NCBI GenBank assembly: GCA_964522165.1
Contig: CAZFVV010000001.1
Location: 23,394-87,393 of the forward strand
Direction: 5' to 3'
DNA: 64,000 nucleotides
Origin: an uncultured Calditrichaceae bacterium
GTDB taxonomy: Bacteria; Calditrichota; Calditrichia; RBG-13-44-9; J075
Shown: piece by piece, positions 737-62,810 of the stretch
Layout of the letters: the number at the start of each line of letters is the position of its first letter
Position numbering within the stretch: position 1 is the stretch's first letter
Notes under the pieces: model-generated
Databases searched by the model: none
What the model was told of the DNA's origin: nothing
Seen by the model: the letters and a program-made list of their open reading frames with translations, nothing else
Translations under genes and position numbers: made by a program

Positions 737-886
737 GCAGAAGCGGAAGCAGGGGCAGGAGCAGGTATAGATAGGAGTGCAAATTTTAATTTGCACTAAC
801 CACTCCCGCACTAACTCTGGCTGTCCCCGATCCTGCTCCTGCCCCTGCCGCCTGCAAAACTGAAGTTTTGCACTCCTGCCCCTGTT
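727..886. repeat. Composite intergenic repeat: GCAGG-rich tandem units, then the palindromes GTGCAAATTTTAATTTGCAC (777-796) and TGCAAAACTGAAGTTTTGCA (853-872), then a C-rich complement
   Basis: Perfect inverted repeats are readable in the sequence. The same motif recurs at 8815-8885, 21615-21665, 30482-30505, 54182-54532 and 57325-57385. Confidence 0.6.
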
Positions 887-4420: not shown

Positions 4421-4514
4421 TTTACATTTTGGAGGTCAAACAAGAGAGGGGGAGAAAAAGCTTTTAGTCAGAAGCAGGGAAGATTCATTTAAAAGCGAAG
4501 TATCCAACACACAA

Positions 4515-4811
4515 ATGAATTCAAGAGAGATTACAATGAAAACTTTGTATTTTCAACTGATGGCTCTATTATGCATCTACCTTTCAGGTTACGCTCAAGG
4601 CACCATTACATCTGTGGTTCATCATGGCCCTTATAATGACTTTGATGCTGTAGTGGTTGATCTTACTCAAACGCAAATTATAATTTTTTTATCTATGTTT
4701 TTTATCGACCCCAAAAATGGGAGTCAGGGCAATGGAATGACTTATATGCGTGGGATTATTTTGGGCCTTTTTATACAGCGGGTTCCTGGAGTGTGGTCAA
4801 TAAACCAATAA
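4515..4811 (+). CDS. 5' fragment of a T9SS cargo gene carrying the signal peptide (MKTLYFQLMALLCIYLSGYAQG); likely the same gene as 4793-5611 after a frameshift
   Basis: Signal-peptide ORF in frame 0. Frame 2 opens at 4661 and continues into the next ORF. A T7 homopolymer lies at 4684-4690. Confidence 0.45.
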   Translation: MNSREITMKTLYFQLMALLCIYLSGYAQGTITSVVHHGPYNDFDAVVVDLTQTQIIIFLSMFFIDPKNGSQGNGMTYMRGIILGLFIQRVPGVWSINQ

Positions 4812-5611: not shown

Positions 5612-5706
5612 ACTGCCAGTGATGCAGGCCGCTCCTTTAGAGCCGCTTTTTACGGACCCCACATAATCGGCCAACTTAGGAAAAGCTTCCGGCAGTCGGT
5701 TCGATC

Positions 5707-5758
5707 AATAAACTCCGCTCATCCCGGTTTCCGCCAGGGGGAGCGGAGTTTATTTCTT
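5707..5758 (+). terminator. Rho-independent terminator-like hairpin after the T9SS gene
   Basis: AATAAACTCCGCTC...GAGCGGAGTTTATT forms a 14 bp stem, followed by TCTT. Confidence 0.55.
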
Positions 5759-6055
5759 ATAAGCATTTATAAGCAGCTTATATTCGGCGTTTTGCTCGAA
5801 ACGTCATCCCGAATAAGTCGGGATGGCGGAAAAGCTGCTTCTTTCCGTAGAAATATTTCTCGAAGGAATCTAAGATCGGAGCACTCCCCGAAGCCTTGCA
5901 TTTTTTTATTTTTTTGCAAAGGGTAGGGGTAAGCATTAAATTTCTCACTTGTTTAAAAAAAAATCGAATTTTGATTCATCTATCACGGTTTTTTTGCTTG
6001 AATTATGCGTAATTGTTAATATTCAGATGCGAACGCGGTAAAAAAAGGAGATTCG

Positions 6056-12121: not shown

Positions 12122-12196
12122 TGTTCGAGTGTTATAGTGTTCTGGTGTTATAGTGCTTTAGTTTCTTCGCACTAAAACACTAAAACACCTGAACAC
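12121..12196. repeat. Long imperfect palindrome made of 8-nt periodic units: GTGTTCGA GTGTTATA GTGTTCTG ... AACACTAAAACACCTGAACAC
   Basis: Tandem GTGTTNNN units are mirrored by NNNAACAC units. Related copies lie at 13797-14052, 19648-19745, 35513-35595 and 62625-62660. Confidence 0.6.
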
Positions 12197-12261
12197 TTTT
12201 CCCCCGTTCTGTACCGTGATACAGCGACATCCGACGCCGCGGTTACCGCAATGAGGATACC

Positions 12262-13796: not shown

Positions 13797-14052
13797 CTGT
13801 GTTCGGGTGTCATGGTGTTCGGGCGTTATAGTGTTCGAGTGTTTTAGTTTCGGGTTTTACGTTTTAAGTTTTGGTTCTCTATCATAATTTTACGTGAATT
13901 AAGGGTTGAAATATCTGATTGGATTCGGAGGGGACAGGGGGGAGGTCATAAACCGATTTTACGATAAGTTCTATACCGTGCTTCCAACCCTTAATTGGCA
14001 TTAAAACACCAAAACACTTGAACACTAAAACACTAAAACACCATAGCACCGC
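13797..14052. repeat. Nested composite repeat: a GTGTTNNN-type left arm (13797-13860), an inner element bounded by GAATTAAGGGTTG...CAACCCTTAATTGG (13888-14000) containing GGGGACAGGGGGGAGGTCATAA, and an NNNAACAC right arm (14000-14052)
   Basis: Read directly from the sequence. The inner element recurs at 62650-62800 attached to only a left arm. Confidence 0.6.
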
Positions 14053-14092
14053 AACACTTTTTATCAACCTTTTATCGAAGGAGATTTTTTTA

Positions 14093-15253: not shown

Positions 15254-15332
15254 GTTGACCAACGATGTTTGAATTTTTCATCGGCGTGATTAATTGCCAA
15301 TTGGCAATTGGCAATTATGTCCTGGCCGGTTT

Positions 15333-17088: not shown

Positions 17089-17793
17089 TCACCTTACCCG
17101 CCCGGTCATCTCTCTCATCCAATGGTGCAGGGGCGATAAATCTTTGAATTTAGCAAAGCAAAAATCCGCAAAAGCGGGAGAGTGCAGCTCCGCGGGGTGG
17201 CCGCCTTCCCAGTAGGCGTACAGCCCTTTGTAGAGCAGCCAATCTGCCAGGGGATGGCCGGCGTCGTAACCGCGGGGCGTTTTTTTATATTTGTCGCCGC
17301 CGATTTTGCAAGCGGGATGTTTGGCAACCGCCTGGGCCGCTTTTGCCAGCGCCGGGCCGTGAACGGGATGCACCACGGACTGGCGGTAGGTTTCCATGAT
17401 GTAAGGCGGAAACATGTACAGCCCCGCGCCTAAGAAAATTCCCGAACCGTCCAATTGAAAGTAGTACCCCGAATTTTCCATCTTTTTATGCGGCCCCTCC
17501 CAGAATAAGATGCCCAGGTGGGTTTTGAAAGGCGCTTTATCCTTGCTGAAGCGAACGTCGCGGTAGAGGCGGAAGATCGACTGGTCGATGCGGGGGTCGG
17601 CCACCACTTTCGGGGAGATGGCGGCCAGGCGCTTGCCCAGCGCAATCACGAACGCCTGCGCGGGAGCCAGCACCTGGGTTTCATACACTTTCCGGTGCGC
17701 CTCGAACCATTGTTTATCATTATTGCCGGAGAGGTCCCGGAAAAACTGCGCCGCTGCTTTCGGGAAGCCGGTGAATTCGGAAGATAGCGCCAT
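17089..17793 (-). CDS. DUF2461 / TIGR02453 family protein
   Basis: Start taken at MALSSEFTGF. Conserved FFRDLSGNNDKQWFEAHR and YRDVRFSKDKAPFKTHLGI blocks are present. The longer upstream ORF is a translation of the tandem repeat. Confidence 0.75.
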   Translation of the reverse strand: MALSSEFTGFPKAAAQFFRDLSGNNDKQWFEAHRKVYETQVLAPAQAFVIALGKRLAAISPKVVADPRIDQSIFRLYRDVRFSKDKAPFKTHLGILFWEGPHKKMENSGYYFQLDGSGIFLGAGLYMFPPYIMETYRQSVVHPVHGPALAKAAQAVAKHPACKIGGDKYKKTPRGYDAGHPLADWLLYKGLYAYWEGGHPAELHSPAFADFCFAKFKDLSPLHHWMREMTGRVR

Positions 17794-17810
17794 GGCAGGT
17801 TCCTCTTTAA

Positions 17811-17874
17811 TAGTTTCGAGTTTTGAGTTTTGAGTTTTGAGTTTTGGGTTTTGGGTTTTGGGTTTTGGGTTGGG
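17811..17874. repeat. Tandem 8-nt repeat (GTTTTGAG x3 then GTTTTGGG x4) immediately upstream of the DUF2461 gene
   Basis: Direct tandem array readable in the sequence. Confidence 0.75.
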
Positions 17875-17895
17875 AAACACCCCAATACTTTGAAT

Positions 17896-18606: not shown

Positions 18607-18621
18607 ACTCCTTTCAGAAGT

Positions 18622-18712
18622 GAGACGTGATGCGTGAAGCGTAATGCATAAAAAACGGAATACGCAATACGGAATACTTATTACGAGTTACGCATCACGT
18701 TTCACGCTTCGG
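18622..18712. repeat. Hairpin repeat of the CGTGAAGCG/CGTAATGC family
   Basis: GTGATGCGTGAAGCGTAATGCAT...ACGAGTTACGCATCACGTTTCACGCTTC forms an inverted repeat. A related copy is at 49143-49240. Confidence 0.55.
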
Positions 18713-19647: not shown

Positions 19648-19745
19648 GCGTGTTCATGTGTTCGAGTGTTATAGTGTTCTTGTGTTTTAGTATTTGGGTA
19701 GGATTCGCAGGTGCTAAAACACTAAAACACTTGAACACCATCGCA
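19648..19745. repeat. GTGTTNNN/NNNAACAC 8-nt periodic palindrome
   Basis: GTGTTCATGTGTTCGAGTGTTATAGTGTTCTTGTGTTTTAG...CTAAAACACTAAAACACTTGAACAC. Confidence 0.6.
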
Positions 19746-27261: not shown

Positions 27262-27354
27262 AAGGCGCATGGCGCAGAGCGCGGAGGGCAGAGCGCAAAA
27301 GGTAATGCGTACGGGGCGTGAAAAGCTTTCTCTATGCGCCATGCGCCATGCGCC
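27262..27354. repeat. GCGCATGGCGCAGAGCGC-family hairpin repeat
   Basis: GGCGCATGGCGCAGAGCGCGGAGGGCAGAGCGC ... TGCGCCATGCGCCATGCGCC; copies also at 29581-29752 and 32370-32485. Confidence 0.6.
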
Positions 27355-28554
27355 TCAACGGTTTTCATACTTCCGCGTTTCCGCCTCCAGCCAATAATCG
27401 GCGGCGATTTCCGTGGCCTTGACCACCCAGAAAATGCCTAACCCGATGGCGAACACCACGTCGAACTGCTTATAAAGGATATTTTGCAGCATTTCGTAGC
27501 ACAAGTGCCCCTGGATATTCAGCGCCATCTCGATGATCACCAGCCCGGTGATCAAAAAGGAGGCTTGCTCCTTGAGCGTGGATAGATATTGATAACGGGC
27601 GTTCAGGTAAATGTGCTGGAACACGTGCCCGGGGAACCGCTTTTCCCAGCGCAATATGGAGAGGGTAGAAATGCCCTCCGTGGCGCCGGGCAAGTAATTG
27701 TTGTTCAATCCCTTGACGATGGCGGTTTCTACGTACCCCTTGCGGCTTTCCGCCACTAAGAAGGTGTAAAATTTCTGGGCGTAGGTGATCAATAATCCGT
27801 TGGAAATAACGCCCAACAGCACCAGGAAGAAAAATGTATCGGTATTGAACCCGGTGCGGAAGGAATACGCGATCACGTACGCGGGGGAGAACAATACCAG
27901 GTAAGCGATGCCTTTCCCCGCGGCTTTGGCCAGCAGGCCGGCGGAACGGGCCAGGTCGCGGAGAATTTGCGGAAGGTCTTTTTGCCGGGGAATTCCGGCC
28001 AGGCAGGCCGCTAATTCCGCCAGGTAAGACGTACGGTTTTGCTTCATGCGCACGAAGCGCAGAACCGCCAGGGTTTGCACGCCGTAGTAGGTCAGCAGCA
28101 TCACCACCAGGTAGGCGAGGATGAATTTGAAATACATTCCGGTAAGCTGCCAGAGCTTGCCGCCGCTCAGCCCCTGGTACAATCCCGCTTTCCGGGCGAT
28201 TTCCTTCGCACGCCCGGCGCGATAGCGGTCGATGGCCCGCAGCAGGGAATCCGCTCGCCCGGGATGATCGGGATAGTACACATTCAGGGTCTCGCGCAGG
28301 AGCGCCCGGTGCAGGGGGTTGGTGATATCGAGGGACTCCAGCCTCAGCAGGGCCTCGATCTCCGCGTTTCCGGCGGGATTCCCAGGTTTATTCTCCGCTT
28401 CAACGCTGAAGATCAGCGCCAGAAAAATAAGCGAGACGAAAGCGATGCTGAGGAGGTGCTCGGTTAATTTGCGTTTCATGGAAAAGCCATTTGCTTGCGC
28501 GGCAATAGTGGTCATTTGCCCCTGCCGGGGCGTCAATTGCGCTGCGCGCGTCAT
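27355..28554 (-). CDS. ABC transporter permease (DppB/YejB-like)
   Basis: Polytopic membrane ORF with a C-terminal permease core. The start is ambiguous between 28554, 28515 and 28479. Confidence 0.7.
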   Translation of the reverse strand: MTRAAQLTPRQGQMTTIAAQANGFSMKRKLTEHLLSIAFVSLIFLALIFSVEAENKPGNPAGNAEIEALLRLESLDITNPLHRALLRETLNVYYPDHPGRADSLLRAIDRYRAGRAKEIARKAGLYQGLSGGKLWQLTGMYFKFILAYLVVMLLTYYGVQTLAVLRFVRMKQNRTSYLAELAACLAGIPRQKDLPQILRDLARSAGLLAKAAGKGIAYLVLFSPAYVIAYSFRTGFNTDTFFFLVLLGVISNGLLITYAQKFYTFLVAESRKGYVETAIVKGLNNNYLPGATEGISTLSILRWEKRFPGHVFQHIYLNARYQYLSTLKEQASFLITGLVIIEMALNIQGHLCYEMLQNILYKQFDVVFAIGLGIFWVVKATEIAADYWLEAETRKYENR

Positions 28555-28735: not shown

Positions 28736-29750
28736 CCTTCCCGCGCACTTCGATGGCGCCCTGGCGCCGGGAGACCCGGTAGGGCGCGCCGAGCAATGCG
28801 TTCTCCAAATGATCCACGAGTTGCCCGGCGCTTTCCGGGAAGACCTGGGGAGAGGGCGCGCCTTCCAAAACACAGTGAACCCGGTTCGCCTCTACCTCTA
28901 CGATCCAGCGGGGCGGGGTGCGGCGCTGGCCGGTTTGCGCGTTGAGATACGCAAAAAGCTCCGCCAGCACCCGGTTTGTTTCCGCAATCCGGCTTTCGAC
29001 CCTTTGCACGATTTCGGGGGGAATGCTCTCCGCGACCGCCGCAGTTCTGCGGTAGATGCGCCAGGAGCGCTCCCGGGATTCATTCGCCAGGTTCGACCAG
29101 CCATAGCGCGGTTCTCCGCCCGGATTTTTGACATACACCCGGCCGCGGTAAGCAAATAAGCGCAGCAGCCGCTCCCCCTTTTCCAGGTAGAATCGCTGCG
29201 CGCGCGGGGTGGATTCGGGCGCAGGATTTTGCGTGATAAACAACGCCTGGTTCGCCAACACCTCTACCGTATCCCGCAGCAGGGTGCAATTATCGAAAAC
29301 CCGGTGGAAACCGATGCGATCCGCGTGCATAAGCTGCCGGCGCTCGTCGGCGAGGAGGAAATAGAGCGAATGGTCGGCCTGCACCTTTATACAGGGAGTG
29401 AATCCGTCGCTCAAATACCCATCGGCGTCTATGATTTGCAAGGGCTGATAGGGTGCCAGGGGGGTTTCCTGCCGGGCATCGATGCGCTGCTGGAATTTGT
29501 CATAAATGACCAGCTCGCGGGGATTTTCAACGGTCAGGAAGTCTGCGGTCTGGGCGGGGAGAAGGCCGCTAAGCGCAAAGAGCAGGGCGCAGAGCGCAGA
29601 GCGCAGAGTGCATGGCGCATAGCGCATGGAGCAAGGAGCAGAACGCAGAGTGCATGGTGCAAAGGGGGAATCGGAGAGCCGGCAGCACGTACGCCCCACG
29701 CTCTGCGCCATGCGCCATACGCTCTGCGTCATGCGCTTTGCTCCCCTCAC
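28731..29750 (-). CDS. Hypothetical secreted protein. The first roughly 40 codons, including a plausible signal peptide (LCALLFALSGLLPAQTADF), are encoded by the GCGCATGG repeat.
   Basis: Long ORF. A believable start is the ATG near 29624 (MRYAPCTLRSALCALLFAL...). Confidence 0.5.
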   Translation of the reverse strand: MRGAKRMTQSVWRMAQSVGRTCCRLSDSPFAPCTLRSAPCSMRYAPCTLRSALCALLFALSGLLPAQTADFLTVENPRELVIYDKFQQRIDARQETPLAPYQPLQIIDADGYLSDGFTPCIKVQADHSLYFLLADERRQLMHADRIGFHRVFDNCTLLRDTVEVLANQALFITQNPAPESTPRAQRFYLEKGERLLRLFAYRGRVYVKNPGGEPRYGWSNLANESRERSWRIYRRTAAVAESIPPEIVQRVESRIAETNRVLAELFAYLNAQTGQRRTPPRWIVEVEANRVHCVLEGAPSPQVFPESAGQLVDHLENALLGAPYRVSRRQGAIEVRGKE

Positions 29751-29752
29751 TT
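29581..29752. repeat. GCGCATGGCGCAGAGCGC-family repeat, largest copy
   Basis: GCGCAGAGCGCAGAGCGCAGAGTGCATGGCGCATAGCGCATGG ... CGCTCTGCGCCATGCGCCATACGCTCTGCGTCATGCGC. Confidence 0.6.
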
Positions 29753-30403: not shown

Positions 30404-30481
30404 TCAACTCCCTGGCTTATGTATGCTGATGTAACAGAAATCCTTCGCCGAAGACGAAATCTGCCTCCCGGCCCCTGCCCC

Positions 30482-30505
30482 GGCAAAACTGAAGTTTTGC
30501 ACTCC
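30482..30505. repeat. Palindrome GGCAAAACTGAAGTTTTGCACTCC
   Basis: Same family as 853-872 and 54184-54204. Confidence 0.6.
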
Positions 30506-30599
30506 TAATCCACCCGCTCACGCCATTTGAGTCTGGAAGACGAAATCCCGACATGCGGCCAGGGAAGGCCGCGTCTTTGTCGGGATTCTCACCCAGCCC

Positions 30600-32369: not shown

Positions 32370-32485
32370 CGCATGGCGCATGGCGCAGAGTGCATAGCGC
32401 ATAGTGTAGAATTTTCATACGCCACAAGCCCTGCCCCATGCGCTCTGCTGTATGCTCTATGCGCCACGCGCTTTGCGCTATGCTA
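32370..32485. repeat. GCGCATGGCGCAGAG-family hairpin repeat
   Basis: GCATGGCGCATGGCGCAGAGTGCATAGCGCATAG ... CATGCGCTCTGCTGTATGCTCTATGCGCCACGCGC. Confidence 0.6.
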
Positions 32486-35512: not shown

Positions 35513-35595
35513 AGTGTTATGGTGTTTTGGTGTTATAGTGTTTGGGTAATTGAACATCTGTACACCGGAACACCATCGCACTAAAATATTACATC
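35513..35595. repeat. GTGTTNNN/NNNAACAC periodic palindrome
   Basis: GTGTTATGGTGTTTTGGTGTTATAGTGTTTGG ... ACACCGGAACACCATCGCAC. Confidence 0.55.
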
Positions 35596-41264: not shown

Positions 41265-44200
41265 TCATCGCATCAACAGCATTTTGCGGGTCTCCACAAA
41301 ACCCTGCCCTGGGCCGCTCGAAGGGGCCGCCGTGAGCCGGTAGAAATACACTCCTGAAGCCGCACCGCTGCCATCCCACTGTACGCTGTGGTAGCCCGCT
41401 GCTTTGCGCTCGTCAACTAACAGGGCTACCCCCTGGCCGAGGATGTTGAAGATTTCCAGTTTCACCTGCGCTGTTTTAGGCAGGCCGAAGCGGATGGTGG
41501 TGGCCGGGTTGAAGGGGTTGGGGTAGTTCTCGACTGTAAAGCTCTGCGGCACGTTTTCCATGGCCGGGACAGAACCTTGGTCGGATAGTTTTAGATAAGG
41601 CAACAAGTCCGTAAATGTACCCGCCGCAGCCATGGCGCTGAAGCTGAGAGAAACCGGCTTGTCGGGAAGCGACGGGGCGTTGCCCAGTATCTTGAACTTC
41701 AGGTTCAAGATGTTCACCACTCCAACGGCGCCGTGCGGATAGGCGTGGGCGGCCGCCAGCCGACCTTCTTTCACTTTCAAGTCATTGATCATTGGTGCGG
41801 CAAAACCTTCGGTGGTGCCGCTGCTGTAACCGGTGAGTTGCAGCAGAGAGGGGTCCCAACTCAGGGCGACGGTATAGCTGCCCAGCTTTTCGCCGGTTTT
41901 GGTCATGTCGATCATCACCGGAACTTCTAGTACCTGCCCGGTAAGGTTCGGAGCCGCGTAAGCCTGTACTTCATTTCCTTTCGCTGGCGGGGCAACGGTT
42001 GACTTACCGGGAGCAACCGGCGCGGGCAGGCATACCACCGTTCCAATCGGGAAGGGTACCGGGAGTCCGACTTCCCAGGTCAGGGTCACCAGTGCATCGG
42101 TAGAGTTGGTCAAACCGTCATCGTTCACGTCGCCAAATCCGATGGCAATACGATCCAGAAACGGCTGGGGAAGCGGTAAGCCAGCGTCGTAGGATAGGAG
42201 CACTAGGGCGTCGATGGAGTTGGTTGCGCCGTCACCGGTAACGTCGCCCAGCACGCCGCTCAGTTGGTCAGCACCGCAAACCAGCATATGCGCAGTGACC
42301 ACATCGGAGGGATTATTCGGATCGTTGCCGCTCACCATAATGTCAGTGGAGTAATCGCCTGGCAGGGTGTCGGCGTTGAAGGTTACCGTCACATCCATGC
42401 TGCCGCCTGCGGGAACCGTGCCGGCCGTAGAGGCTACCTCCAACCACTCAACCATCGGAACCACGCTGATGCTCCAGATCAGCTCGCCTCCCCCGGAATT
42501 GAAGATGGTGATGGTCTCATCCCCGGTTTGGCCCTGCGAGAGAGCAACATTCAGCATTTGCGGGCTCACCACCATCACCCCAGCGGACTGTAACGCGCTG
42601 ATCCCGGCAATTCCGGCATGGGGCAAATTACCTATGCGGATAAACGCTCCCCCGGCATATACCGTGGAACCGCTCACCGCCAGGGCATCTACCCCGGGGT
42701 AGGCATTGGGATCCCAGGCGGTAGCGCTGCCGGTAGCGGCATTCAGCGCGGCAATGTAGTTGCGCTCCTGCCCGCCGATGCTGCCAAAAGATCCCCCGGC
42801 ATAGACCGTAGAGCCGCTCACCGCCAGGGCAGATACCCAGTTGTTGGCATTGGGATTCCAGGCCGTGGCGCTGCCGGTCGTGGCATCCAGCGCGGCAATG
42901 TAGTTTCGCGCCTGCCCGCCAATGCTGGTAAACCCTCCCCCGGCATAGACCGTGGAGCCGCTCACCGCCAGGGTCACTACTTCGCCATTGGCATCAGGAT
43001 TCCAGGCGGTGGCGCTGCCAGTAGCGGCATCCAGCGCAGCGATGTAGTCTCGCGGCTGCCCGCCGATGTGGTGAAAGTTTCCCCCGGTATAGACCGTGGA
43101 GCCGCTCACCGCCAGGGCAAGAACCGGACCGAAGATGGAGTTGGGATTCCAGGCGGTTGCGCTGCCGGTAGCGGAATCCAGTGCCGCAATGCGGCTGCGC
43201 TGCTGCCCGCCAATATTGAAAAAGTCTCCCCCGGCATAGACTGTGGAGCCGCTCACCGCCAGAGCGGTTACTAGTTCATCGGCATCTGGATTCCAGGCGG
43301 TGACGCTGCCGCTAACGGCATCCAGCGCGGCAATGCGGTTGCGCTCCTGCCCGCCAATGCTGGTAAACCCTCCCCCGGCATAGACCGTGGAGCCACTCAC
43401 CGCCAGGGCCAATACCCCGATATTGGCATTGGGATTCCAGGCGGTGGCGCTGCCAGTAGCGGCATCTAACGCGGCAATGCGGTTACGTGCCTGCCCGTCG
43501 ATGCTGGTAAATTCTCCCCCGGCATAGACCGTGGAGCCGCTCAGCGCCAGGGCCCATACCACGCTGTTGGCATTGGGATTCCAGGGGGTAGCGCTGCCGG
43601 TAGCAGCATCCAGCGCGGCAATGCGGTTTCGCGGCTGCCCGCCAATATTAGTAAAATACCCCCCGGCATAGGCCGTGGAGCTGCTTACTGCCAGGGCACT
43701 TACAGGGTTGTTGGCATTAGGATTCCAGGGGGTAGCGCTGCCGGTAGCGGCATCCAGCGCGGTGATGTAGTTTCGCGCTTGCCCCCCGATGCTGGTAAAA
43801 AATCCCCCGGCATAGATGGTGGAGCCGCTCACTGCCAGGGCATTTACAGGGTTGTTGGCATTAGGATTCCAGGGGGTAGCGCTGCCGCTAACAGCATCCA
43901 GCGCGGTGATGTAGTTTCGCGGCTGCCCGCCGATGCTGGTAAACCCTCCCCCGGCATAGACCGTGGAGCCGCTCACCACCAGGGTCCATACTCCGTCGTT
44001 AGCATCGGGATTCCAGGTTGTGGCGCTGCCGGTAGCGGCATCCAGTGCGGCAATGTAGTTTCGCGCCTGCCCGCCAATGCTGATAAAGGCTCCCCCGGCA
44101 TAGATGGTGGAGCCGCTCACCGCAAGGGTTGCTACCGGACCGTTGGCATCAGGATCCCAGGGAGAGAGGGTATGGTCCGCCTGAATATGGGCGATGTTAT

Positions 44201-44528
44201 TGCGCGGTACCCCGTTTACATGGGTAAATATTCCTCCGATATACCAACCGCCCATCCCGTCTGGAACCACCGCATTCACAGTTCCTAGCACCTTCGGCAG
44301 AGAAATATCTGGCGCGCCGGTAACAACGTCGATGGCCGCCCCGCCGCCCGTGGCGGGACCCACTTCGGTAAAGTCTCCCCCAATGTAGATGGTGCTTCCC
44401 GAAACCACCAATGCTCTCACCGGAGCATTGGTGATCCACAAATTGGGGTCAATGGTCTGCGCCGCTCCCGGCAGGCTGCCCAGGAGCAATGCGCCCAGCG
44501 TGAACCAGAGCCGGATTATGCGTTTCAT
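41265..44528 (-). CDS. Large secreted protein (1087 aa): about 17 tandem delta-60-type repeats, two dockerin-like modules and a T9SS C-terminal sorting domain
   Basis: Repeated SGSTVYAGGxFTSIGGQxRNYIAALDAATGSATxWNPNAN blocks. Dockerin-like modules GDVTGDGATNSIDALVLLSYDAG and GDVNDDGLTNSTDAL. C-terminal YPNPFNPATTIRFGLP...ILGQGVALL...SGVYFYRL. Confidence 0.8.
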   Translation of the reverse strand: MKRIIRLWFTLGALLLGSLPGAAQTIDPNLWITNAPVRALVVSGSTIYIGGDFTEVGPATGGGAAIDVVTGAPDISLPKVLGTVNAVVPDGMGGWYIGGIFTHVNGVPRNNIAHIQADHTLSPWDPDANGPVATLAVSGSTIYAGGAFISIGGQARNYIAALDAATGSATTWNPDANDGVWTLVVSGSTVYAGGGFTSIGGQPRNYITALDAVSGSATPWNPNANNPVNALAVSGSTIYAGGFFTSIGGQARNYITALDAATGSATPWNPNANNPVSALAVSSSTAYAGGYFTNIGGQPRNRIAALDAATGSATPWNPNANSVVWALALSGSTVYAGGEFTSIDGQARNRIAALDAATGSATAWNPNANIGVLALAVSGSTVYAGGGFTSIGGQERNRIAALDAVSGSVTAWNPDADELVTALAVSGSTVYAGGDFFNIGGQQRSRIAALDSATGSATAWNPNSIFGPVLALAVSGSTVYTGGNFHHIGGQPRDYIAALDAATGSATAWNPDANGEVVTLAVSGSTVYAGGGFTSIGGQARNYIAALDATTGSATAWNPNANNWVSALAVSGSTVYAGGSFGSIGGQERNYIAALNAATGSATAWDPNAYPGVDALAVSGSTVYAGGAFIRIGNLPHAGIAGISALQSAGVMVVSPQMLNVALSQGQTGDETITIFNSGGGELIWSISVVPMVEWLEVASTAGTVPAGGSMDVTVTFNADTLPGDYSTDIMVSGNDPNNPSDVVTAHMLVCGADQLSGVLGDVTGDGATNSIDALVLLSYDAGLPLPQPFLDRIAIGFGDVNDDGLTNSTDALVTLTWEVGLPVPFPIGTVVCLPAPVAPGKSTVAPPAKGNEVQAYAAPNLTGQVLEVPVMIDMTKTGEKLGSYTVALSWDPSLLQLTGYSSGTTEGFAAPMINDLKVKEGRLAAAHAYPHGAVGVVNILNLKFKILGNAPSLPDKPVSLSFSAMAAAGTFTDLLPYLKLSDQGSVPAMENVPQSFTVENYPNPFNPATTIRFGLPKTAQVKLEIFNILGQGVALLVDERKAAGYHSVQWDGSGAASGVYFYRLTAAPSSGPGQGFVETRKMLLMR

Positions 44529-47713: not shown

Positions 47714-47739
47714 GAAACTCTCCTTTGGTTGCGATAATG

Positions 47740-47815
47740 GATGCGGGTATAGGGTATAAGGCGTTGCTCTCCTTATACCCTATACCTCTATACCCTATAC
47801 CTTATACCTAAACCT
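47740..47815. repeat. GGTATAGGGTATAAGG-family hairpin repeat
   Basis: GGGTATAGGGTATAAGGCG...CCTTATACCCTATACCTCTATACCCTATACCTTATACC; a related copy is at 60210-60335. Confidence 0.6.
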
Positions 47816-47816
47816 C

Positions 47817-49094
47817 TCACCCCGCAAAGCGGTTCAGTTTTTTCAAGAACAGTAGCACTAACAGCGAGGCGGCGAAGAGCAGCCCCGCCAGGAGCATGAA
47901 ATATTCATGGTGCGCCAGGGAGCTGTAAAACCGCCCTAACAGCCCCGAGGAATAAGCGCCCAGGGCGGTAGCGCCAAACCAGCAGCCCATCATCAGCCCG
48001 CCCATGCGCGGGGGGGCGACTTTGGAAACGTAAGAAAGCCCCATGGGGCTGACCAGGATTTCCGCTACCGTGATCACCAGGTACGAGCTGATCAGCCAGG
48101 CGGGGGACATGATGTTTTGATCCAGGTTCCCGCCCATCAAAGAGGCGAATACCATCACGATCAGCGAGGCCCCGGCGATAAAAATACCCAGGAAAATCTT
48201 GCTCGCGCTGGAAGGCTCCTTCCCGCGCTTGCGCAAGGCGTTGAAAATCGAGACGATCACCGGGGTCAGGATCACGATGAAAAAGGGGCCGAAAAACTGG
48301 TAGGTTTCCGGGCGCAGAAAGGAGTATTCAACCGTGGAGCGCTGGGCGAAGAGGGTCAGGGCGAAACCGTTCTGGTAAAAAGCCATCCAGAAGAAAATCG
48401 CGATCAAAAACAGGATGCCCAGGGAGGCCAGCCGCTCCCACTCTTCCTTTTTGCTCATGGCCGCCTGCTGCTGGGGGTTGGAAACGGTCGCAGCAGGGGA
48501 TTCCGGCGCTTCGCTGACCTGGTAGGTTCCCCGTCCCAGTTGAAAAATGGCCATGGAAACGATCATACCCAGGGAAGCCGTCCCGAAAGAGACATTGTAG
48601 TTTTCGAACCGGTTGTGCAGCGCGGTGGCGGCCAGGGGCGCGATGAACGCGCCGATATTGATCCCCATGTAGAAAATATTATATCCCACGTCCTTCAGTT
48701 TGCTGCCCGGCGGGTAGAGCTTGCCCACCAGCACGGAGATGTTGGCCTTGAACAGCCCGTTGCCAAAGGCGATCATTACCAGCCCGCCGTAAAACAGCGC
48801 CAGGCGGTTCAGGGCCGAAAAAGCCAGCAGCGCGTAACCGCACATCATAATCACCGCTCCCACCCGGATGGTATTGCGATAACCGAGGAACTTATCGGCG
48901 ATCCACCCGCCTAAGATGGGGAAGAAATATACCGCCCCTAAAAACAGGCCGTACACGTCCGCCTTGTCCGCGTCGCTCCATTTGAAACTCTCGTCCATGT
49001 ACAGCGTGAACACCGCCATCATGGTATAAAATCCGAACCGCTCCCACATCTCGGTAAAGAACAGGGTGGTCAATCCCCGGGGGTGATTTTTGAA
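47817..49094 (-). CDS. POT/PTR2-family di-/tripeptide:proton symporter (MFS)
   Basis: TLFFTEMWERFGFYTMMAVFTLYM is the POT signature. Start taken at MFKNHPRG with an AAGGAG RBS; the upstream extension crosses the repeat. Confidence 0.85.
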   Translation of the reverse strand, partial: FKNHPRGLTTLFFTEMWERFGFYTMMAVFTLYMDESFKWSDADKADVYGLFLGAVYFFPILGGWIADKFLGYRNTIRVGAVIMMCGYALLAFSALNRLALFYGGLVMIAFGNGLFKANISVLVGKLYPPGSKLKDVGYNIFYMGINIGAFIAPLAATALHNRFENYNVSFGTASLGMIVSMAIFQLGRGTYQVSEAPESPAATVSNPQQQAAMSKKEEWERLASLGILFLIAIFFWMAFYQNGFALTLFAQRSTVEYSFLRPETYQFFGPFFIVILTPVIVSIFNALRKRGKEPSSASKIFLGIFIAGASLIVMVFASLMGGNLDQNIMSPAWLISSYLVITVAEILVSPMGLSYVSKVAPPRMGGLMMGCWFGATALGAYSSGLLGRFYSSLAHHEYFMLLAGLLFAASLLVLLFLKKLNRFAG

Positions 49095-51256: not shown

Positions 51257-51266
51257 AATTCATTAA

Positions 51267-52457
51267 TTATGTCTCAATTGTATCAAAATCTATTTCGAGC
51301 TTTTTACATAAATCACTCAATATTTTAAGCCCTCTCTCTCGACCATAATGACTTTCCATGGTATATCCTTCATACTTCACAGGATAAAAAAATTCTCTGC
51401 CATTTGGATGAACGGGCGGAATTTCATTTGTTACGATATATCTGTGCTTGCTGCTTCCCCAGGGAAGTGGAAGTTTCAAGATATATTTTTTTTCAACGAT
51501 ATACTTCAGAATATCTCCGAAAAGTAGGCGTAAAGTTTCATTAGAAAAAACTTTGTTATCAAGCTTAACAGCTATTCTTCCAGTGGTTCGCCCCTTAGTA
51601 TCTGCAACATCCGAAGTACTATAATCGATGGTTCCTGTTGCTACTAAGACATCATAAATCGAATCAAACACATCATTGTATTTCTCGTAAAGAGCAATAG
51701 CCATTTTCTTTTCTTCATTCGTAATTGCCATTTTGATTCCCTTATATCTAATCTTCAGGTTTTTAATATATTGAATAATGAAAGGTTTAACTTTATCATT
51801 TAGATTGGGGTGGTCGAGCAATGGCATTAATAGTTTATCATTCAACAATTGATAATCCAAACAGTACCATCTCATATCCCCAACCGTAGATTTAGAATCC
51901 AATGAAAGATTTGGCGTTAAATATATTAACAAGTTTACATCATTGGGGTGACTTTTATAGAGCCAATCTGCATACTTTTTTGACTGTTTCCCATCAGGTT
52001 TTGAATCAATTTTTAATTCAAATACAATGTTTAGCTTACCTTTATTGCCCAAACTGTCTTCAAAATTTGCTGTGAGAAAGATGTCAAATCTACCTACGCC
52101 AATAATACTGGTCTCATTTGGAGTATTCTCATTCGGTGTAACTTCCACGTCATAAAACTCAACAGTTGGAAGTATCGTTAATAAAAACTGCTTTGAATGA
52201 TCACTCGCTTTAAGACATCGTTCGTCAAAGAGCAACAACAAAAACCTTTTTAGAGAATAATCTGAAAGTAAATGTGAACCACTGGGATCCAATAACCACC
52301 CGAAAAAACATGAATGCCATCTTTCATAATGAGTTCTGCCGACTATTTTAAAAAAATTCGGTTCGCTAAGGATGTTTTCAAACTTTATGAACGCTGGTTC
52401 TGAGATTAAACTCAATAGTCTTTGTGTAAAGCTGGCTTTCGTTTTTTCCCTTGGCAC
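51267..52457 (-). CDS. PD-(D/E)xK nuclease-superfamily protein (396 aa), stand-alone, in an AT-rich islet
   Basis: N-terminal E..HS..FGWLLDP..SH block, then GRFDIF...VFELKIDSK (D...E-x-K). GC is far below the flanks. Confidence 0.65.
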   Translation of the reverse strand: MPREKTKASFTQRLLSLISEPAFIKFENILSEPNFFKIVGRTHYERWHSCFFGWLLDPSGSHLLSDYSLKRFLLLLFDERCLKASDHSKQFLLTILPTVEFYDVEVTPNENTPNETSIIGVGRFDIFLTANFEDSLGNKGKLNIVFELKIDSKPDGKQSKKYADWLYKSHPNDVNLLIYLTPNLSLDSKSTVGDMRWYCLDYQLLNDKLLMPLLDHPNLNDKVKPFIIQYIKNLKIRYKGIKMAITNEEKKMAIALYEKYNDVFDSIYDVLVATGTIDYSTSDVADTKGRTTGRIAVKLDNKVFSNETLRLLFGDILKYIVEKKYILKLPLPWGSSKHRYIVTNEIPPVHPNGREFFYPVKYEGYTMESHYGRERGLKILSDLCKKLEIDFDTIET

Positions 52458-52692
52458 TCTTCACCTTCAGTGATCAGGATTCTACTTGAAAAAACTATGG
52501 ACTCCAATGTATCAACTTTTCAATTTCCCTACAATTGAGGAAAAATTTAATCCAATTTCTCTTTGATGACAATTCAAAGATTCATAATGATTTATTTTGT
52601 AGCGTGTCGTTAATCAGGTTGATTTTCACAGCGAAGACTGATATATTTCTTACGTTTTACGTAATACGTGGCAAAAACATCCAGAGAAGGCT

Positions 52693-54171
52693 ATGCCCTC
52701 ACAAAATCCCTACCAGGCGCTTTTATCCATCAGCGAGCAAATCAACGCCGTGCACGACACCTCCACGCTGTTCGACCGCATCATGGACCTCGCCATGGAG
52801 GCGCTAAAGGCGGAGCGGGGGTTTATCCTTCTGAAATCTCCCGCCGGCAAGAAAGAGTTTGAGGCGGTCACCGCCCGGAATATCAGCAAGGAGACCATCT
52901 CCTCCATCCGGGAGCTGTCCAGCAGCGTGGTGAACCAGGTGCTGGAGAAAGGGGAGCCGGTGCTGACCATGGATGCCCGGGCGGATGAGCGCTTTTCCGG
53001 GGCGGAGAGCGTGCTGCTGCAAAATATCCGCTCCGTGGTATGCACCCCGCTGCTGCGCCAGGATGAGCTGATCGGGGCGATTTATATGGATAACCGCGCC
53101 GGCGCCGGGCATTTCGATGAAGAGAGCCTGCGCTTTCTGCAAGCCTTTGCCGGACAGGCCGCCATCGCCATCGAGAACGCCCGGCTATTCGAGAAATTGC
53201 AATCGGAAAACCAGCGTTTGAAGCAGCAGATTTCGCTCAACACTATCTTCCCGGAGATCATCGGGACAAGCGCCCCCATCGTACACATCCTGGAAATGGT
53301 GCGCGACGTGGCCGGTTCCACGGCCACGGTGCTGATCGAAGGGGAAAGCGGCACCGGCAAGGAGTTGGTCGCCAGGGCGCTGCACTATCACTCTCCCCGA
53401 AAGGAGAATCTCTTCATCCCGATTTTCTGCGGCAGCCTCTCGGAAAATTTGTTAGAGAGCGAGCTTTTCGGCCACAAAAAAGGCGCTTTTACCGGGGCCA
53501 TCGAAAACAAGGCCGGCCTCTTCGAGCAGGCGCACCAGGGCACCCTGTTTCTCGATGAAATCGCGGACATCAACAAGAACATCCAAACCAAGCTGCTGCG
53601 GGTGCTGCAGGAAGGGGAGATCAAGCGGGTGGGCGAGACCGCCATCCGCAACGTGGACGTACGGATTATCTCCGCGGCCAATAAGGATCTCTGGCAGGAA
53701 GTGCAGGCGGGAAATTTCCGGGAAGACCTCTATTACCGCCTGAACGTCATCAATATCAAAATGCCCCCGCTGCGGGAACGGAAGGATGACATTCCCCTGC
53801 TGGCGGAGCATTTTTTGCAAAAATTCGCCTTGCAGAACAAGAAAAAAATCAGCGGGTTCACCATGGAGGCGCTGGAATTGCTCAAAAGTTATCACTGGCC
53901 GGGGAACATCCGGGAGCTGGAAAATTCCATCGAGCGGGCGGTGATCCTGGCCCGGGAGCCGAAAATTCCCGCCGGCCTGTTCAATTTGCACCGCCCCCGC
54001 CCGGAATCCGACCTGGCCGGCAAACCGCTGCAGGAAATCGAGAAATACGCCATCCTGAAAACCTTAGAGCTGACCGGGAATAATCGCACCAAAACCGCCC
54101 AGATGCTGGACGTTTCCCGTCGCTGGCTGCAATACCGCCTGAAAGAGTGGGGGATTGGGGAGGATCTATAG
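52693..54171 (+). CDS. Sigma-54-dependent transcriptional activator with an N-terminal GAF sensor domain
   Basis: GAF region, then AAA+ with GESGTGKELVARALH and the GAFTGA loop, then a C-terminal Fis-type HTH. Confidence 0.88.
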   Translation: MPSQNPYQALLSISEQINAVHDTSTLFDRIMDLAMEALKAERGFILLKSPAGKKEFEAVTARNISKETISSIRELSSSVVNQVLEKGEPVLTMDARADERFSGAESVLLQNIRSVVCTPLLRQDELIGAIYMDNRAGAGHFDEESLRFLQAFAGQAAIAIENARLFEKLQSENQRLKQQISLNTIFPEIIGTSAPIVHILEMVRDVAGSTATVLIEGESGTGKELVARALHYHSPRKENLFIPIFCGSLSENLLESELFGHKKGAFTGAIENKAGLFEQAHQGTLFLDEIADINKNIQTKLLRVLQEGEIKRVGETAIRNVDVRIISAANKDLWQEVQAGNFREDLYYRLNVINIKMPPLRERKDDIPLLAEHFLQKFALQNKKKISGFTMEALELLKSYHWPGNIRELENSIERAVILAREPKIPAGLFNLHRPRPESDLAGKPLQEIEKYAILKTLELTGNNRTKTAQMLDVSRRWLQYRLKEWGIGEDL

Positions 54172-54181
54172 GCAGAAGCAG

Positions 54182-54532
54182 GAGTGCAAAACTTCAGTTT
54201 TGCAGGGGCAGGAGCAGTGGGCAGGGACAAGAGCAGGAGGCAGGGGCAGGGGCGGCAGGAGCAGGAGGCAGGGGCAGGAGCAGGAGGCAGGGGCAGGGGC
54301 AGGAGTAGGGGCAGGGGCAGGAGTAGGGGCAGGAGTAGGGGCAGGGGCAGGAGTAGGGGCAGGGGCAGGAGTAGGGGCAGGAGCAGGGGCAGGAGCAGGG
54401 GCAGCCGCGTTAGCGGTGGTTTACCCCTTTTCCAAAGGAAGCACTTTGTGCCGGGGCTTCGCCATAGGCAATATTTGTGCTCCTTCCCTGCCACCTGCCT
54501 CCGCTCCTGCCCCTGCCTACTGCTCCCTTTTC
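54182..54532. repeat. Palindrome GAGTGCAAAACTTCAGTTTTGCA, then about 200 bp of GGGGCAGGAG(C/T)A tandem repeats (54205-54410), then a complementary C-rich copy (54478-54530)
   Basis: Tandem 12-mers are readable. Many GGGG runs lie on the + strand between the activator and kinase genes. Confidence 0.7.
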
Positions 54533-54552
54533 GCCATTAGAATTAGAAACCG

Positions 54553-56280
54553 ATGAAGATCGAAGGCTACGAAATCCTCAAAGAGATCAGCCGGGGGCCG
54601 ATTACCACGGTATTCCTGGGGAAGCAGTTGGCGTTGGAACGCCTGGTGCTCATCAAGCTGCTGAACGCCCAGTGGCAGCGAGAGGCGGACCTGATCGAGC
54701 GTTTTCGCCGCGAAGCAATTATATGCGCCCGCCTGAAGCATCCCAATATCGTCAGCATCTATGATGTCGGTACCCATTCCGACAACCTCTACCTGGTAAT
54801 CGAATATATCGAAGGGGAGGATTTAGGGCAGTTTCTGAAACGGCATCATCCCCTGCCGGTTGAGCTGGCGCTGTTCATCAGCAGAGAGCTGATCGCCGGG
54901 CTGGCTTACGCCCATTCCCAGGGAATCATCCACCGCGACATCAAGCCGGGCAATATTATGGTGAGCCGGGAGGGCGCGGTCAAAATCACCGATTTCGGGC
55001 TGGCGCGCACGGAGGATTTGCCTTCGATCACCGCGCAGGGGGGAACGGTGGGCACCCCGGCGTATATGTCGCCGGAGCAAACCCGGGGGGAGAAGCTGGA
55101 TCAGCGTTCGGATATTTTCAGCTTAGGCGCTACCCTCTACGCGCTGGCCAGCGGGGAATCGCCTTTCCGGGGAGAAAATTTCGCCGATTCCATCCAAAAA
55201 GTATTGAGAAACAATCCCCCGCCTCTCCGGCAAATCCGGCCGGACATTCCCGACTGGTTCTCCGGCCTGGCGGCGGGAATGCTGCACAAAGATCCCCGGA
55301 AGCGCCCCGCTTCCGCCAAAGAGGTTCTCAGCCATTTCGGTTTTCATAACCTGCCGGCCAATCGCGACCGCCTGGCGGCTTTCATCATTGATCCCGCGGG
55401 TTTCCGGCCGCGCGAAAAAGCTGCTGACAAAACGGGCAGGAGTTCCTTTCTGCGCCCCTCTTACCGGCTGCCGGCAGTGATTTTGGGAGCAATGATCATA
55501 GCGCTGGTCATCCTGTTCAGCCGCAATGGAGGGCAAGAACCGTCCGCCGGGAAGCAACCCCTGGGGAATCCGGCGGCGCCCGCCCGGCTTCCCGACTCGT
55601 TGAATTCAAGTGATACTTTTTTCTCCTCGCTGGAACAAGATAGCACAGGCCAACCCTCATCAATCGCCCGTAATTCTGCTGCGAAAAATCGCCGTGGCGA
55701 TATACCGGCGCAAACGCTTTCTCGCGGCGCTGCCGGGAGCGACCATCAAGAGGCTCGACCGGGGACGACATCCCCCGCGGGAAATTTATCCCCGGAAAGC
55801 GATAGCGCAGAGCGCCCGCCAGCGTTGCGGGATTCTCTGGCGGAAAGCGCCTCCGCTGGCCCGGGCGGGCTTTTTATCGTCTGCGCTCCCTGGGCGGATA
55901 TATTTATCGACGGGCAGAAAAAGGATACTACCCCGCTGCGCCAGCCGCTGTTGTTGCCGCCCGCAGTATATAACCTGGAATTGAAGAATCCCGGCTTCGA
56001 GACCTACCGCCGCCAGGTGGCCGTTGAACCCGGTAAAACCGATTCCCTGGTGGTCAATCTCCGGCCCCGGGCCGGTTACCTGGCCCTGCGGGTAACTCCC
56101 TGGGCGGAGGTGTACCTCAACGGAGAATATTACGACACCACTCCCCTGAAACACCCCATTTCCCTGCCCTCCGGAAAGTACGAAATCAAACTGGTCAACC
56201 CCAATTTCTCCGCCTGGGCCGACAGCGTGGTAATTACCGCCGGAGAAACGGCCTCCCGCCAGGTAACGTTGAGCAAATGA
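54553..56280 (+). CDS. Serine/threonine protein kinase with a TM segment and C-terminal PEGA domains
   Basis: Kinase subdomains (HRDIKPGNIM, DFGLA, GTPAYMSPE), a TM helix near residue 300 and two PEGA-like repeats. Confidence 0.88.
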   Translation: MKIEGYEILKEISRGPITTVFLGKQLALERLVLIKLLNAQWQREADLIERFRREAIICARLKHPNIVSIYDVGTHSDNLYLVIEYIEGEDLGQFLKRHHPLPVELALFISRELIAGLAYAHSQGIIHRDIKPGNIMVSREGAVKITDFGLARTEDLPSITAQGGTVGTPAYMSPEQTRGEKLDQRSDIFSLGATLYALASGESPFRGENFADSIQKVLRNNPPPLRQIRPDIPDWFSGLAAGMLHKDPRKRPASAKEVLSHFGFHNLPANRDRLAAFIIDPAGFRPREKAADKTGRSSFLRPSYRLPAVILGAMIIALVILFSRNGGQEPSAGKQPLGNPAAPARLPDSLNSSDTFFSSLEQDSTGQPSSIARNSAAKNRRGDIPAQTLSRGAAGSDHQEARPGTTSPAGNLSPESDSAERPPALRDSLAESASAGPGGLFIVCAPWADIFIDGQKKDTTPLRQPLLLPPAVYNLELKNPGFETYRRQVAVEPGKTDSLVVNLRPRAGYLALRVTPWAEVYLNGEYYDTTPLKHPISLPSGKYEIKLVNPNFSAWADSVVITAGETASRQVTLSK

Positions 56281-56300
56281 CATTTACTGGGGTAAATCAA

Positions 56301-56340
56301 AGACCTCAAAGGTTTTCAAAACCTTTGAGGTCTTTTTTTA
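56301..56340 (+). terminator. Rho-independent terminator
   Basis: AGACCTCAAAGGTTTT-C-AAAACCTTTGAGGTCT forms a 16 bp stem, followed by TTTTTTT. Confidence 0.8.
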
Positions 56341-60209: not shown

Positions 60210-60335
60210 GAGGGGGAAAGGTAAAAGGTATATGGCATAAGGTATAGGGGTTGGGGTCAGAGAAATTACCCTGCACCCCACTCCCCACTCCCTACTCCCT
60301 TAATACCCTATACCTTATACCCTCCATCCCCCCAT
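60210..60335. repeat. GGTATAGGGTATAAGG-family repeat
   Basis: GGTAAAAGGTATATGGCATAAGGTATAGGGG...CCCTTAATACCCTATACCTTATACCC. Confidence 0.55.
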
Positions 60336-62624: not shown

Positions 62625-62810
62625 ATGCGGTGTTCAGGTGTTCGTGTGTTTAAGTGAATTAAGGGTTGGAGCCATAGTATTGAATTCGGAGAGAACTCAG
62701 GGTTTAACATCCCCCCTGTCCCCCCCTTCAAAGGGGGGAACTACCCATTCGCCCTTGACTTTCCCCCCTTTGAAGGGGGGACAGGGGGGATGTCATAAGC
62801 CGCTCTTAAA
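62625..62810. repeat. GTGTTNNN left arm, then an AATTAAGGGTTGG inner element containing CCCCCCTTCAAAGGGGGG / CCCCCCTTTGAAGGGGGG hairpins and GACAGGGGGGATGTCATAAGCC
   Basis: Shares both the arm and the inner element with 13797-14052. Confidence 0.6.

Follow-up and report, generated by a model that had tools for sequence, protein, structure and literature searches.

What a 200-bp array of tandem guanine tracts is doing between the gene of a transcriptional activator and that of a protein kinase is the question raised by an intergenic spacer in the genome of an uncultured Calditrichaceae bacterium. The spacer (54172-54552) lies within a 64,000-nt stretch of contig CAZFVV010000001.1 of assembly GCA_964522165.1, hereafter the window. 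The comparisons described here suggest that replication slippage probably expanded the array recently, and in a strain-specific manner, from the G-rich 5' arm of an intergenic element of a generic kind. This element consists of a short palindrome resembling the repetitive extragenic palindromic (REP) sequences of other bacteria, a tandem-repeat arm of 6-nt units, a variable core and an inverted, C-rich copy of the arm. An element of this kind has inserted into an ancestral gene overlap, the genome harbors a family of such hairpin elements, the array changes length in whole units, and the hairpin is conserved where the capacity to form G-quadruplexes (G4s) is not.

The location of the array between a sigma-54 activator and a Ser/Thr kinase, as stated in an earlier note made from the sequence of this DNA, is corroborated by Pfam matches in both flanking open reading frames (ORFs). 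The spacer measures 381 nt from the stop of the activator ORF (52693-54171) to the start of the kinase ORF (54553-56280), and the G-rich strand is the sense strand of both genes. The array itself lies outside the genes called coding, between these two plus-strand genes, and is reported by Tandem Repeats Finder (TRF) at 54202-54404 (203 nt) with period 6, 33.7 copies, a score of 223 and the consensus GCAGGG; its unit is written GCAGGR here, in about 34 units, or alternatively (GGGGCAGGGGCAGGAGUA)n. It contains 119 G, 49 A, 29 C and 6 T (59% G). Upon the base period of 6, the right two-thirds are organized into higher-order units of 12/18 nt that are 90-95% identical, while the left third is degenerate. 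The earlier note had counted more than 15 GGGG runs spaced 6-12 nt apart; the count holds, with 16 runs in the array and a 17th at 54453, and the start-to-start spacing is as described across 54290-54398, but the runs in the degenerate left third are 19-38 nt apart. With at most one mismatch, the 12-mer GGGGCAGGRGYA occurs 30 times in the window against 1.9 expected from shuffles, and 21 of these matches belong to this array. The inverted C-rich copy that had been placed about 70 nt downstream is also found, beginning 73 nt past the array (54478-54526); it is approximately 47 nt long and 77-85% complementary, over 40-48 nt, to several registers of the array.

Orthologous loci were gathered through homologous kinase proteins and then the contigs encoding them, and the kinase homologues carry the source names Calditrichaeota or Calditrichia. 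Contig scans that started from the kinase were swamped by matches to a motif generic to kinases, DIKPGNIM, and the only useful contig to emerge from them was L004, the closest species-representative contig, which is labelled "Deltaproteobacteria bacterium PRO9". Five alleles bear a spacer, namely those of the window, L002, L004, L163 and L164, and the G arm is accompanied by an inverted partner in all of them. The L164 allele (kinase 84% identical), whose contig starts inside the spacer, presents a palindrome and a G arm of 16 nt, to which its C arm is a perfect match. The 150-nt spacer of L163 (kinase 80% identical) also holds a palindrome, as well as a 27-nt arm that has units of the GTAGGTA type and is matched by a C arm, and the 127-nt spacer of L004 (97% identical over the first 117 kinase residues) holds short G and C arms, the former of about 23 nt, without the TGCAAAAC palindrome. 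The fifth allele, L002, is found on a Joint Genome Institute (JGI) contig from sample 3300009873 that is 99.8% identical to the window downstream and encodes an identical activator protein. Its G arm extends to about 113 nt and its spacer to 291 nt, exactly 90 nt (15 hexamers) shorter than that of the window, and the whole of this difference lies inside the array. The surplus of G tracts is confined to these two near-identical strains. The earlier note had let its proposal depend on conservation of the G-tract structure in related genomes, and this is contradicted by the relatives with 80-97% kinase identity, where the G arms measure 16-27 nt.

More distant loci reveal the ancestral arrangement. 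All four outgroups (L165/L166, L167, L168/L169 and L170; kinase 47-57% identical) are devoid of a spacer, and in each the activator stop and the kinase start overlap by 11 nt, forming ATGAAAATTGA. It follows that the spacer is the derived state and arose by insertion between two tightly coupled genes. The activator C-termini differ between these groups: those of the outgroups end in ...EWGIVDEN*, that of the window in ...EWGIGEDL*, that of L004 in ...EWGIGEEQEQ* and that of L163 in ...EWGMGEEQGE*. The insertion rewrote the last activator residues, and in L004 and L163 the GAGCAG repeat units are themselves translated.

Length change of the kind produced by slippage is evident between the window and L002. 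The L002 allele has two junctions with 21-mers absent from the window allele and is therefore a separate allele rather than a collapsed assembly path. Across the approximately 17 kb shared by the two, every other indel of at least 3 nt also falls in a repeat array: the GGGTATA/TATACCC element at 47734-47800 differs by 14 nt (two heptamers) and by 3 nt, and a TTTTACG/TAATACG run differs by 7 nt (one heptamer) at 52663. A further contig from the metagenome of L002 (L171; 8.5 kb, 99.8% identical) displays no indel despite containing two GTGTT-type elements. The array that is longest is thus also the one that changes most readily, which is what slippage would predict, and the hotspot of slipped-strand length variation suggested earlier is well supported.

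The same pair of contigs differs in other respects to the left of the array. The heptamer run at 52650-52672 (L002 9950-9975), TTTTACG TAATACG [CAATACG], with its one-unit difference between the strains, is situated about 25 nt upstream of the activator start and just downstream of a sigma-70-like TTGATT-17-TATATT, which places a repeat in a promoter or leader region. At 51261-52606 the window carries a PD-(D/E)XK nuclease gene (PDDEXK_4, 51267-52457), and the corresponding segment of L002 (8035-9907) carries a restriction-modification pair (RE_EcoO109I and N6_N4_Mtase). The two sequences are 95% identical to the left of this exchange of defence genes and 99.8% identical to its right, and this step in identity suggests that a variable defence islet marks a boundary of recombination.

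The element into which the array has grown is by no means unique to this spacer. A perfect 20-nt palindrome, TGCAAAACTTCAGTTTTGCA, which is absent from the earlier note, lies immediately left of the array (54185-54204); it has 10 matches, counting both strands, at 6 loci of the window against 0 expected, and it or near variants recur at 853, 8821, 8862, 21626 and 30482. The wider REP-like family (GGAGTGCAAAACTTCAGTTTTGCA...; GGAGTGCAAAAyt..arTTTTGCACTCC) numbers nine copies within the 64 kb, eight of them intergenic and one overlapping the last 12 nt of an ORF, and divergent (-+) spacers contain none of the nine. The family thus shares with REP sequences the character of a short, conserved, multi-copy intergenic palindrome kept outside divergent promoter spacers; the GTAG motif is not evident at its flank, and neither a RAYT transposase (IS200/IS605-type TnpA), as associated with REP sequences, nor any other Y1 transposase was found among the 26 of about 49 window ORFs scanned against Pfam. 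Together with about 20 nt of GCAGGR units, the palindrome forms a module of about 47 nt that recurs at 54178-54225, 832-879 and 30461-30506 with 89-92% identity, so that the array begins in what is the tail of a REP-like module. The similar arrangement that had been pointed out at 727-886 matches in its layout, and over 49 nt its segment 832-879, read in reverse orientation, shares 92% identity with 54178-54225.

Elements of the same design with other units are common in this Calditrichota genome and scarce in divergent promoter spacers. A custom local-alignment scan, used for the census because one based on BLAST missed most elements, found at least 12 inverted repeats in the window that comprise a tandem-repeat arm, a core and an inverted tandem-repeat arm, each arm being periodic with a unit of 6-8 nt. 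The units fall into five families (GCAGGR, GTGTTNNN, GCGCAKR, GGGTATA and CGTGAWG; Table 1), and most of them, including GTGTTNNN, GCGCAKR and GGGTATA, are not G4-capable. The GCAGGR loci and the periodic-armed elements occur mostly in ++, -- and +- spacers, with one weak case in a -+ spacer, and among their neighbours are housekeeping genes such as those encoding PlsX, a radical-SAM protein, RNase E/G and Era. Folding of the intergenic regions gave z-scores of -4 to -11 in most co-directional and all convergent spacers; the three divergent spacers that were folded, at -0.6 to -1.1, are not structured. Every periodic-armed element places its G-rich arm first, a real property of the elements, since an inverted repeat reads G-first on both strands, albeit one of modest statistical weight given only five unit families. 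The window yields 72 TRF rows per 64 kb against 2-4 weak rows per 14-16 kb at the outgroup loci, and the repeat load is therefore lineage-specific.

Table 1. Features of the activator-kinase spacer, with its flanking genes, and representatives of related elements in the window (a dot stands where no strand is assigned).
Feature	Positions	Strand	Basis or remarks
Upstream gene: GAF / sigma-54-interaction AAA+ (Sigma54_activat) / HTH_8 enhancer-binding protein, 492 aa; stop TAG 54169-54171	52693-54171	+	Pfam; identical protein on L002
G-rich lead-in GCAGAAGCAGGAG, left flank of REP-like module	54172-54184	+	Sequence, module homology
REP-like palindrome TGCAAAACTTCAGTTTTGCA, 20 nt, 8-9 bp stem	54185-54204	.	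Family copies, module identity
Hexamer array GCAGGR; right-part higher-order units GGGGCAGGAGTA / GGGGCAGGGGCAGGAGTA; 5' G arm plus ~150 nt surplus	54202-54404	+	
Non-repetitive core with two small hairpins, CCGCGTTAGCGG and CCTTTTCCAAAGG	54405-54477	+	Sequence, fold
C-rich 3' arm, CCTGCY units	54478-54526	+	Complementarity; pairs with array in RNA and DNA folds
TTTT right after stem, then leader CGCCATTAGAATTAGAAACCG up to kinase ATG	54528-54552	+	Kept in 5/5 spacer-bearing alleles
Downstream gene: Ser/Thr protein kinase (Pkinase) with C-terminal PEGA domains, 575 aa	54553-56280	+	Pfam
GCAGGR element: G arm 725-765, palindrome 779-794, C arm 832-853, REP-like palindrome 853-872, further CCTGCC units	725-886	.	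Between convergent genes
Octamer-unit element GTGTTNNN / NNNAACAC	12119-12197	.	More copies 13799-14057, 19650-19745, 35513-35582
Heptamer-unit element CGTGAWG	18620-18705	.	
Heptamer-unit element GCGCAKR / YMTGCGC; asymmetric arms (~105 vs 60 nt)	29556-29752	.	More copies 27263-27355, 32370-32483
Heptamer-unit element GGGTATA / TATACCC; arm lengths differ between window and L002 (14-nt, 3-nt indels)	47734-47817	.	Related copy 60220-60323

Other repeats of the window stand apart from this design to varying degrees. A long nested palindrome rich in C7/G7 runs (ACATCCCCCCTGTCCCCCCCTTCAAAGGGGGGAA...) at 62707-62793 differs from the repeat-armed elements in being C-first. The core of the GTGTT element at 13880-14000 (see also 13930-13955) repeats both the sequence of this palindrome and the GTGAATTAAGGGTTG motif that flanks it, and a repeat family is therefore formed by the cores as well. 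At 15285-15320, a run of self-complementary heptamers, (AATTGGC/AATTGCC)n, gives a hairpin that lies between convergent genes, and the same unit stands in place of the TGCAAAAC palindrome in the activator-kinase spacer of L004 (L004 2725-2755). A solitary (AGTTTTG) repeat of 8.6 copies with 96% matches, at 17812-17871, has no inverted partner and sits in the over-extended 5' end of a DUF2461 ORF (17089-17880, minus strand).

The folding of the spacer bears directly on whether the array was shaped as a regulatory device. For each of the five alleles the predicted fold is a long stem-loop, formed by pairing of the C arm with a portion of the G arm (z -3.6 to -7.6, with no shuffle folding as well), and DNA folding parameters give the same hairpin; the evidence for the stem is taken from the fold of each allele, as the repetitive arms pair in many registers and an alignment across alleles is arbitrary. 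In the window the stem ends at 54527 and is followed by TTTT at 54528-54531 and then about 21 nt up to the kinase ATG, a tail kept in all alleles. A search of the window against Rfam 15 gave no match at the gathering thresholds, and at E-value thresholds only sub-threshold matches resembling miRNA precursors, which reflect the long hairpin. The canonical G4 regular expression, with loops of 1-7 nt, matches nothing in the array, where loops alternate between 2 and 8 nt, and G4 potential was scored instead with G4Hunter and the gquad option of ViennaRNA. G4Hunter values are no lower than 1.5 throughout 54228-54404 and reach 2.0 or more within it, over 54287-54380, and ViennaRNA places two G4s in the unpaired surplus of the window allele, coexisting with the stem between the G and C arms, at a minimum free energy of -215.5 kcal/mol with quadruplexes as opposed to -178.8 kcal/mol. 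One G4 is predicted for L002 and none for L163, L164 or L004. The strong G4-forming potential claimed for this DNA is thereby upheld as a prediction, and the idea of alternative structures, with pairing to the C arm replacing quadruplexes, agrees with the predicted folds of the window allele only; for the relatives with short, balanced arms no G4 is predicted.

These folds might be taken to describe a dedicated riboregulator, in which the G tracts and the C arm would adopt structures that exclude one another and, upon a signal, attenuate the kinase at the level of transcription or translation. The high G4Hunter values, the gain in predicted energy, the position of the G-rich strand as the sense strand of both genes, and a stem followed by TTTT some 25 nt from the start codon are all as such a device would have them. 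Nevertheless, three of the five alleles within the same clade possess no G4 capacity and the four outgroups possess no spacer; units incapable of forming G4s (GTGTTNNN, GCGCAKR and GGGTATA) appear in the same design between housekeeping genes; and the array differs in length between strains that are 99.8% identical. At 29556-29752, moreover, it is the arm C-rich in the mRNA sense that has expanded, which argues against consistent selection for G tracts in RNA. A riboregulator of this type is thus unlikely, if not negligibly so, and the regulatory or attenuator role that the earlier note had tied to the activator/kinase context is undermined by the same observations, the G tracts being unconserved in relatives, the spacer missing from the outgroups and the design shared between unrelated genes.

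Promoters within the spacer were considered and set aside. A sigma-54 promoter came into question since the gene upstream encodes a sigma-54 activator; the candidate, AGGCAATATTTGTGCT at 54464-54479, has three mismatches to the consensus, and the core (54405-54477), in which it lies in large part, is not conserved in L004, L163 or L164; matches to the sigma-54 consensus with at most two mismatches number 23 in the window against 32 expected, which is not above chance. A Bacteroidetes-type or sigma-70 promoter in the core is likewise not conserved among the alleles.

A contingency locus, where gain and loss of units would heritably tune or switch expression of the kinase, or the ratio of kinase to activator, by phase or rheostat variation, appears equally improbable. 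It draws on the length polymorphism in multiples of the unit between near-identical strains, on the standing of the array as the most indel-prone site in the approximately 26 kb compared across strains, and on Haemophilus, where one report describes intergenic simple repeats that can act through the structure of a 5' untranslated region (UTR) and RNase III (PMC12721329). The array, however, is located outside any ORF and has no promoter elements assigned around it, and similar arrays flank the housekeeping genes for RNase G, Era and PlsX, which is untypical of contingency genes; the same negative conclusion was drawn by Rehm et al. for the analogous repeats of Xanthomonas and Nostoc (PMC4692102).

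It is very unlikely that the array serves as a series of binding sites, whereby the repeated hexamers would recruit a sequence-specific protein or an RNA-binding factor. The short, regular unit and the occurrence of several unit families in one genome would suit this role, for which the hypothesis advanced for the TAACTGA heptamers of Beggiatoaceae (PMC4679880) provides a precedent. Five unrelated units would, however, require five factors, the number of units is not conserved, and the units are always paired with an inverted array, which points to pairing rather than binding.

The assemblies of related material speak to the reality of the array. Short-read contigs break in it, and a Logan contig carrying the kinase (L001) begins 36 nt inside its right end, where the match to the window is exact. 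Other Logan contigs (SRR15237800, SRR15237813 and SRR15237816) show 100% identity to the window along stretches of 5.7-7.6 kb that take in six other repeat elements, and the arrays of the window are therefore reproducible in general. Taken with the same structure, in fewer units, of L002, the exact match of L001 indicates that the array is not an assembly artefact in kind. A mis-assembled expansion, or else a hidden coding sequence for a Gly/Ala/Arg-rich peptide (ORF 54184-54540, 118 aa), is hardly credible, for although short-read contigs break here, open frames cross the array on both strands and the 90-nt indel is a multiple of three, two independent assemblies with identical flanks hold an end of the array or its shorter allele, the ORFs at 54184-54540 (+) and 53892-54494 (-) have no Pfam match and cannot exist in alleles of 127-150 nt, and gain or loss of 6-nt units always yields indels divisible by three. 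As for where assemblies break, short-read contig ends (L001, L164, L172-L174) fall at the G array, at the REP-like palindrome, and at inverted arms (14000-14003) or the terminator hairpin, a perfect 17-bp stem located past the kinase (56299-56335), and these breaks account for the recurrence of contigs of about 1.9 kb that carry the kinase alone.

The preferred explanation, slippage expansion of a generic hairpin element, may be framed as a sequence of events. The element inserted into the gene pair that overlapped by 11 nt, creating a spacer, and its G arm then changed length in whole units, probably growing by replication slippage. Once transcribed, the intercistronic stem-loop, if it acts at all, could uncouple the translation of the two genes, as the hairpins of REP sequences and bacterial interspersed mosaic elements (BIMEs) and of the short tandemly repeated repetitive (STRR) sequences of cyanobacteria are thought to do, and it may pause or partly terminate transcription or protect the 3' end of the upstream mRNA. 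The approximately 150 nt of G tracts that lack a C-rich partner would represent a by-product of slippage, with G4s possible only in the expanded alleles. As the G-rich strand is the sense strand, surplus G4s could further lower read-through into the kinase or its translation, but any such effect would be incidental and unstable rather than that of a designed switch.

Several points weigh against this explanation. We infer transcription through the element, termination and processing alike, and a role as terminator would at best be weak: the T tract after the stem comprises only 4 nt (54528-54531), short of the at least five T within 8 nt by which an intrinsic terminator was defined, and a scan with a terminator consensus did not call the site in the spacer, although it found the canonical terminator after the kinase (56299-56335). 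The right-hand 25 nt and the stem are kept in all five alleles, and the reason could be function instead of recency. As the expanded alleles seen number only two, selection for length is possible; the exact unit number of the window stems from the window assembly alone, as the short-read contigs end in the array. Finally, no transposase that could account for its insertion is linked to the element.

A wider conjecture, which we regard as a long shot, is that this lineage has an as yet undescribed, genome-wide system of intercistronic hairpins with tandem-repeat arms, always G-first, whose arm length and leftover G4 tracts would act as a heritable and quickly mutable dial on the expression of neighbouring genes, with the activator/kinase spacer as its most expanded example. 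The G-first polarity might, speculatively, avoid exposing a C-rich arm as a loading site for Rho, and a hairpin-directed activity that generates repeats is another possible reason for it.

Beyond the repeats treated above, the window contains a 144-nt tandem repeat of 10.4 copies, 81% matching, at 42634-44128 within a minus-strand ORF of 1087 aa (41265-44528), presumably encoding a repeat-domain protein. The region 2001-6000 is of low GC content (0.36-0.41 versus approximately 0.55 elsewhere) and has two ORFs with C-terminal sorting domains of the type IX secretion system (T9SS; Por_Secre_tail); it may be a horizontally acquired island.

The significance of the locus lies in the clear evolutionary series that it presents, from an 11-nt overlap in the outgroups through hairpin spacers of 127-150 nt in relatives to 291 and 381 nt in two strains; it demonstrates the ability of such elements to invade an operon junction that is tightly coupled and to lengthen afterwards by slippage. 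It also offers a caution for G-quadruplex biology, in that a very strong G4 signal can be a non-conserved by-product, and a practical one, as such arrays and palindromes break short-read assemblies and create spurious ORFs.

Among known systems, the closest counterparts of the array are the intergenic, G4-forming simple sequence repeats (SSRs) of Xanthomonas (GGGAATC, or GGGNATC) and Nostoc (GGGGAYT) described by Rehm et al. (2015, PLoS One; PMC4692102). These are G-rich units of 6-9 nt, favoured between co-directional ORFs and depleted between divergent ones, whose number varies strongly among close relatives (reported maximum 26, mode 4); their flanking genes show no functional bias, no function was found for them, and they often form convergent inverted pairs with the G-rich arm first, where either a stem-loop or a G4 is possible (PMC4692102). 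The array shares with them a tandem G-rich unit with at least four G tracts of three or more G, a location between aligned ORFs and a unit number that varies among relatives. Its GCAGGR hexamer, 12/18-nt periodicity and approximately 34 units nonetheless mark it as another sequence family of the same class, and it is further distinguished by its Calditrichota host, by at least five unit families that are mostly not G4-capable, by the adjoining REP-like palindrome, and by G4s that are in this case predicted only.

The heptamer hairpins of the cyanobacterial STRR family, such as that between hupS and hupL, have been proposed to stabilize transcripts, to couple or uncouple translation, and to pause or terminate transcription (PMC2670836). 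The element described here resembles them as a set of short tandem repeats able to form a hairpin in an operon spacer; those repeats, however, are 7-nt units of filamentous cyanobacteria, and no sequence relationship to the array was found. A repeat of Haemophilus influenzae in the 5'-UTR, intergenic and phase-variable, acts with RNase III (PMC12721329), and offers a parallel in an intergenic array that is prone to gain and loss of units and is placed upstream of a gene in a predicted structured RNA, although here the neighbours belong to neither the surface nor the contingency genes and arrays like it are a generic feature of the genome. Within the same phylum, an 18-nt REP-like palindrome, aAACCGTTgaAACGGTTt, has been reported from Caldithrix abyssi (Kublanov et al. 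2017; PMC5317091). Like this palindrome and the enterobacterial REP and BIME sequences, the family in the window is short, multi-copy and intergenic, with an asymmetric centre, and is located downstream of genes and outside divergent (start-to-start) spacers; unlike them, it has the sequence GGAGTGCAAAACTTCAGTTTTGCACTCC and is flanked by, and merges into, tandem hexamers, with its copy number drawn from 64 kb. The array, striking as its sequence may be, is a member of an already known class of intergenic repeats, and it extends these little-studied, structure-forming repeats of 6-9 nt to a new phylum, the Calditrichota.

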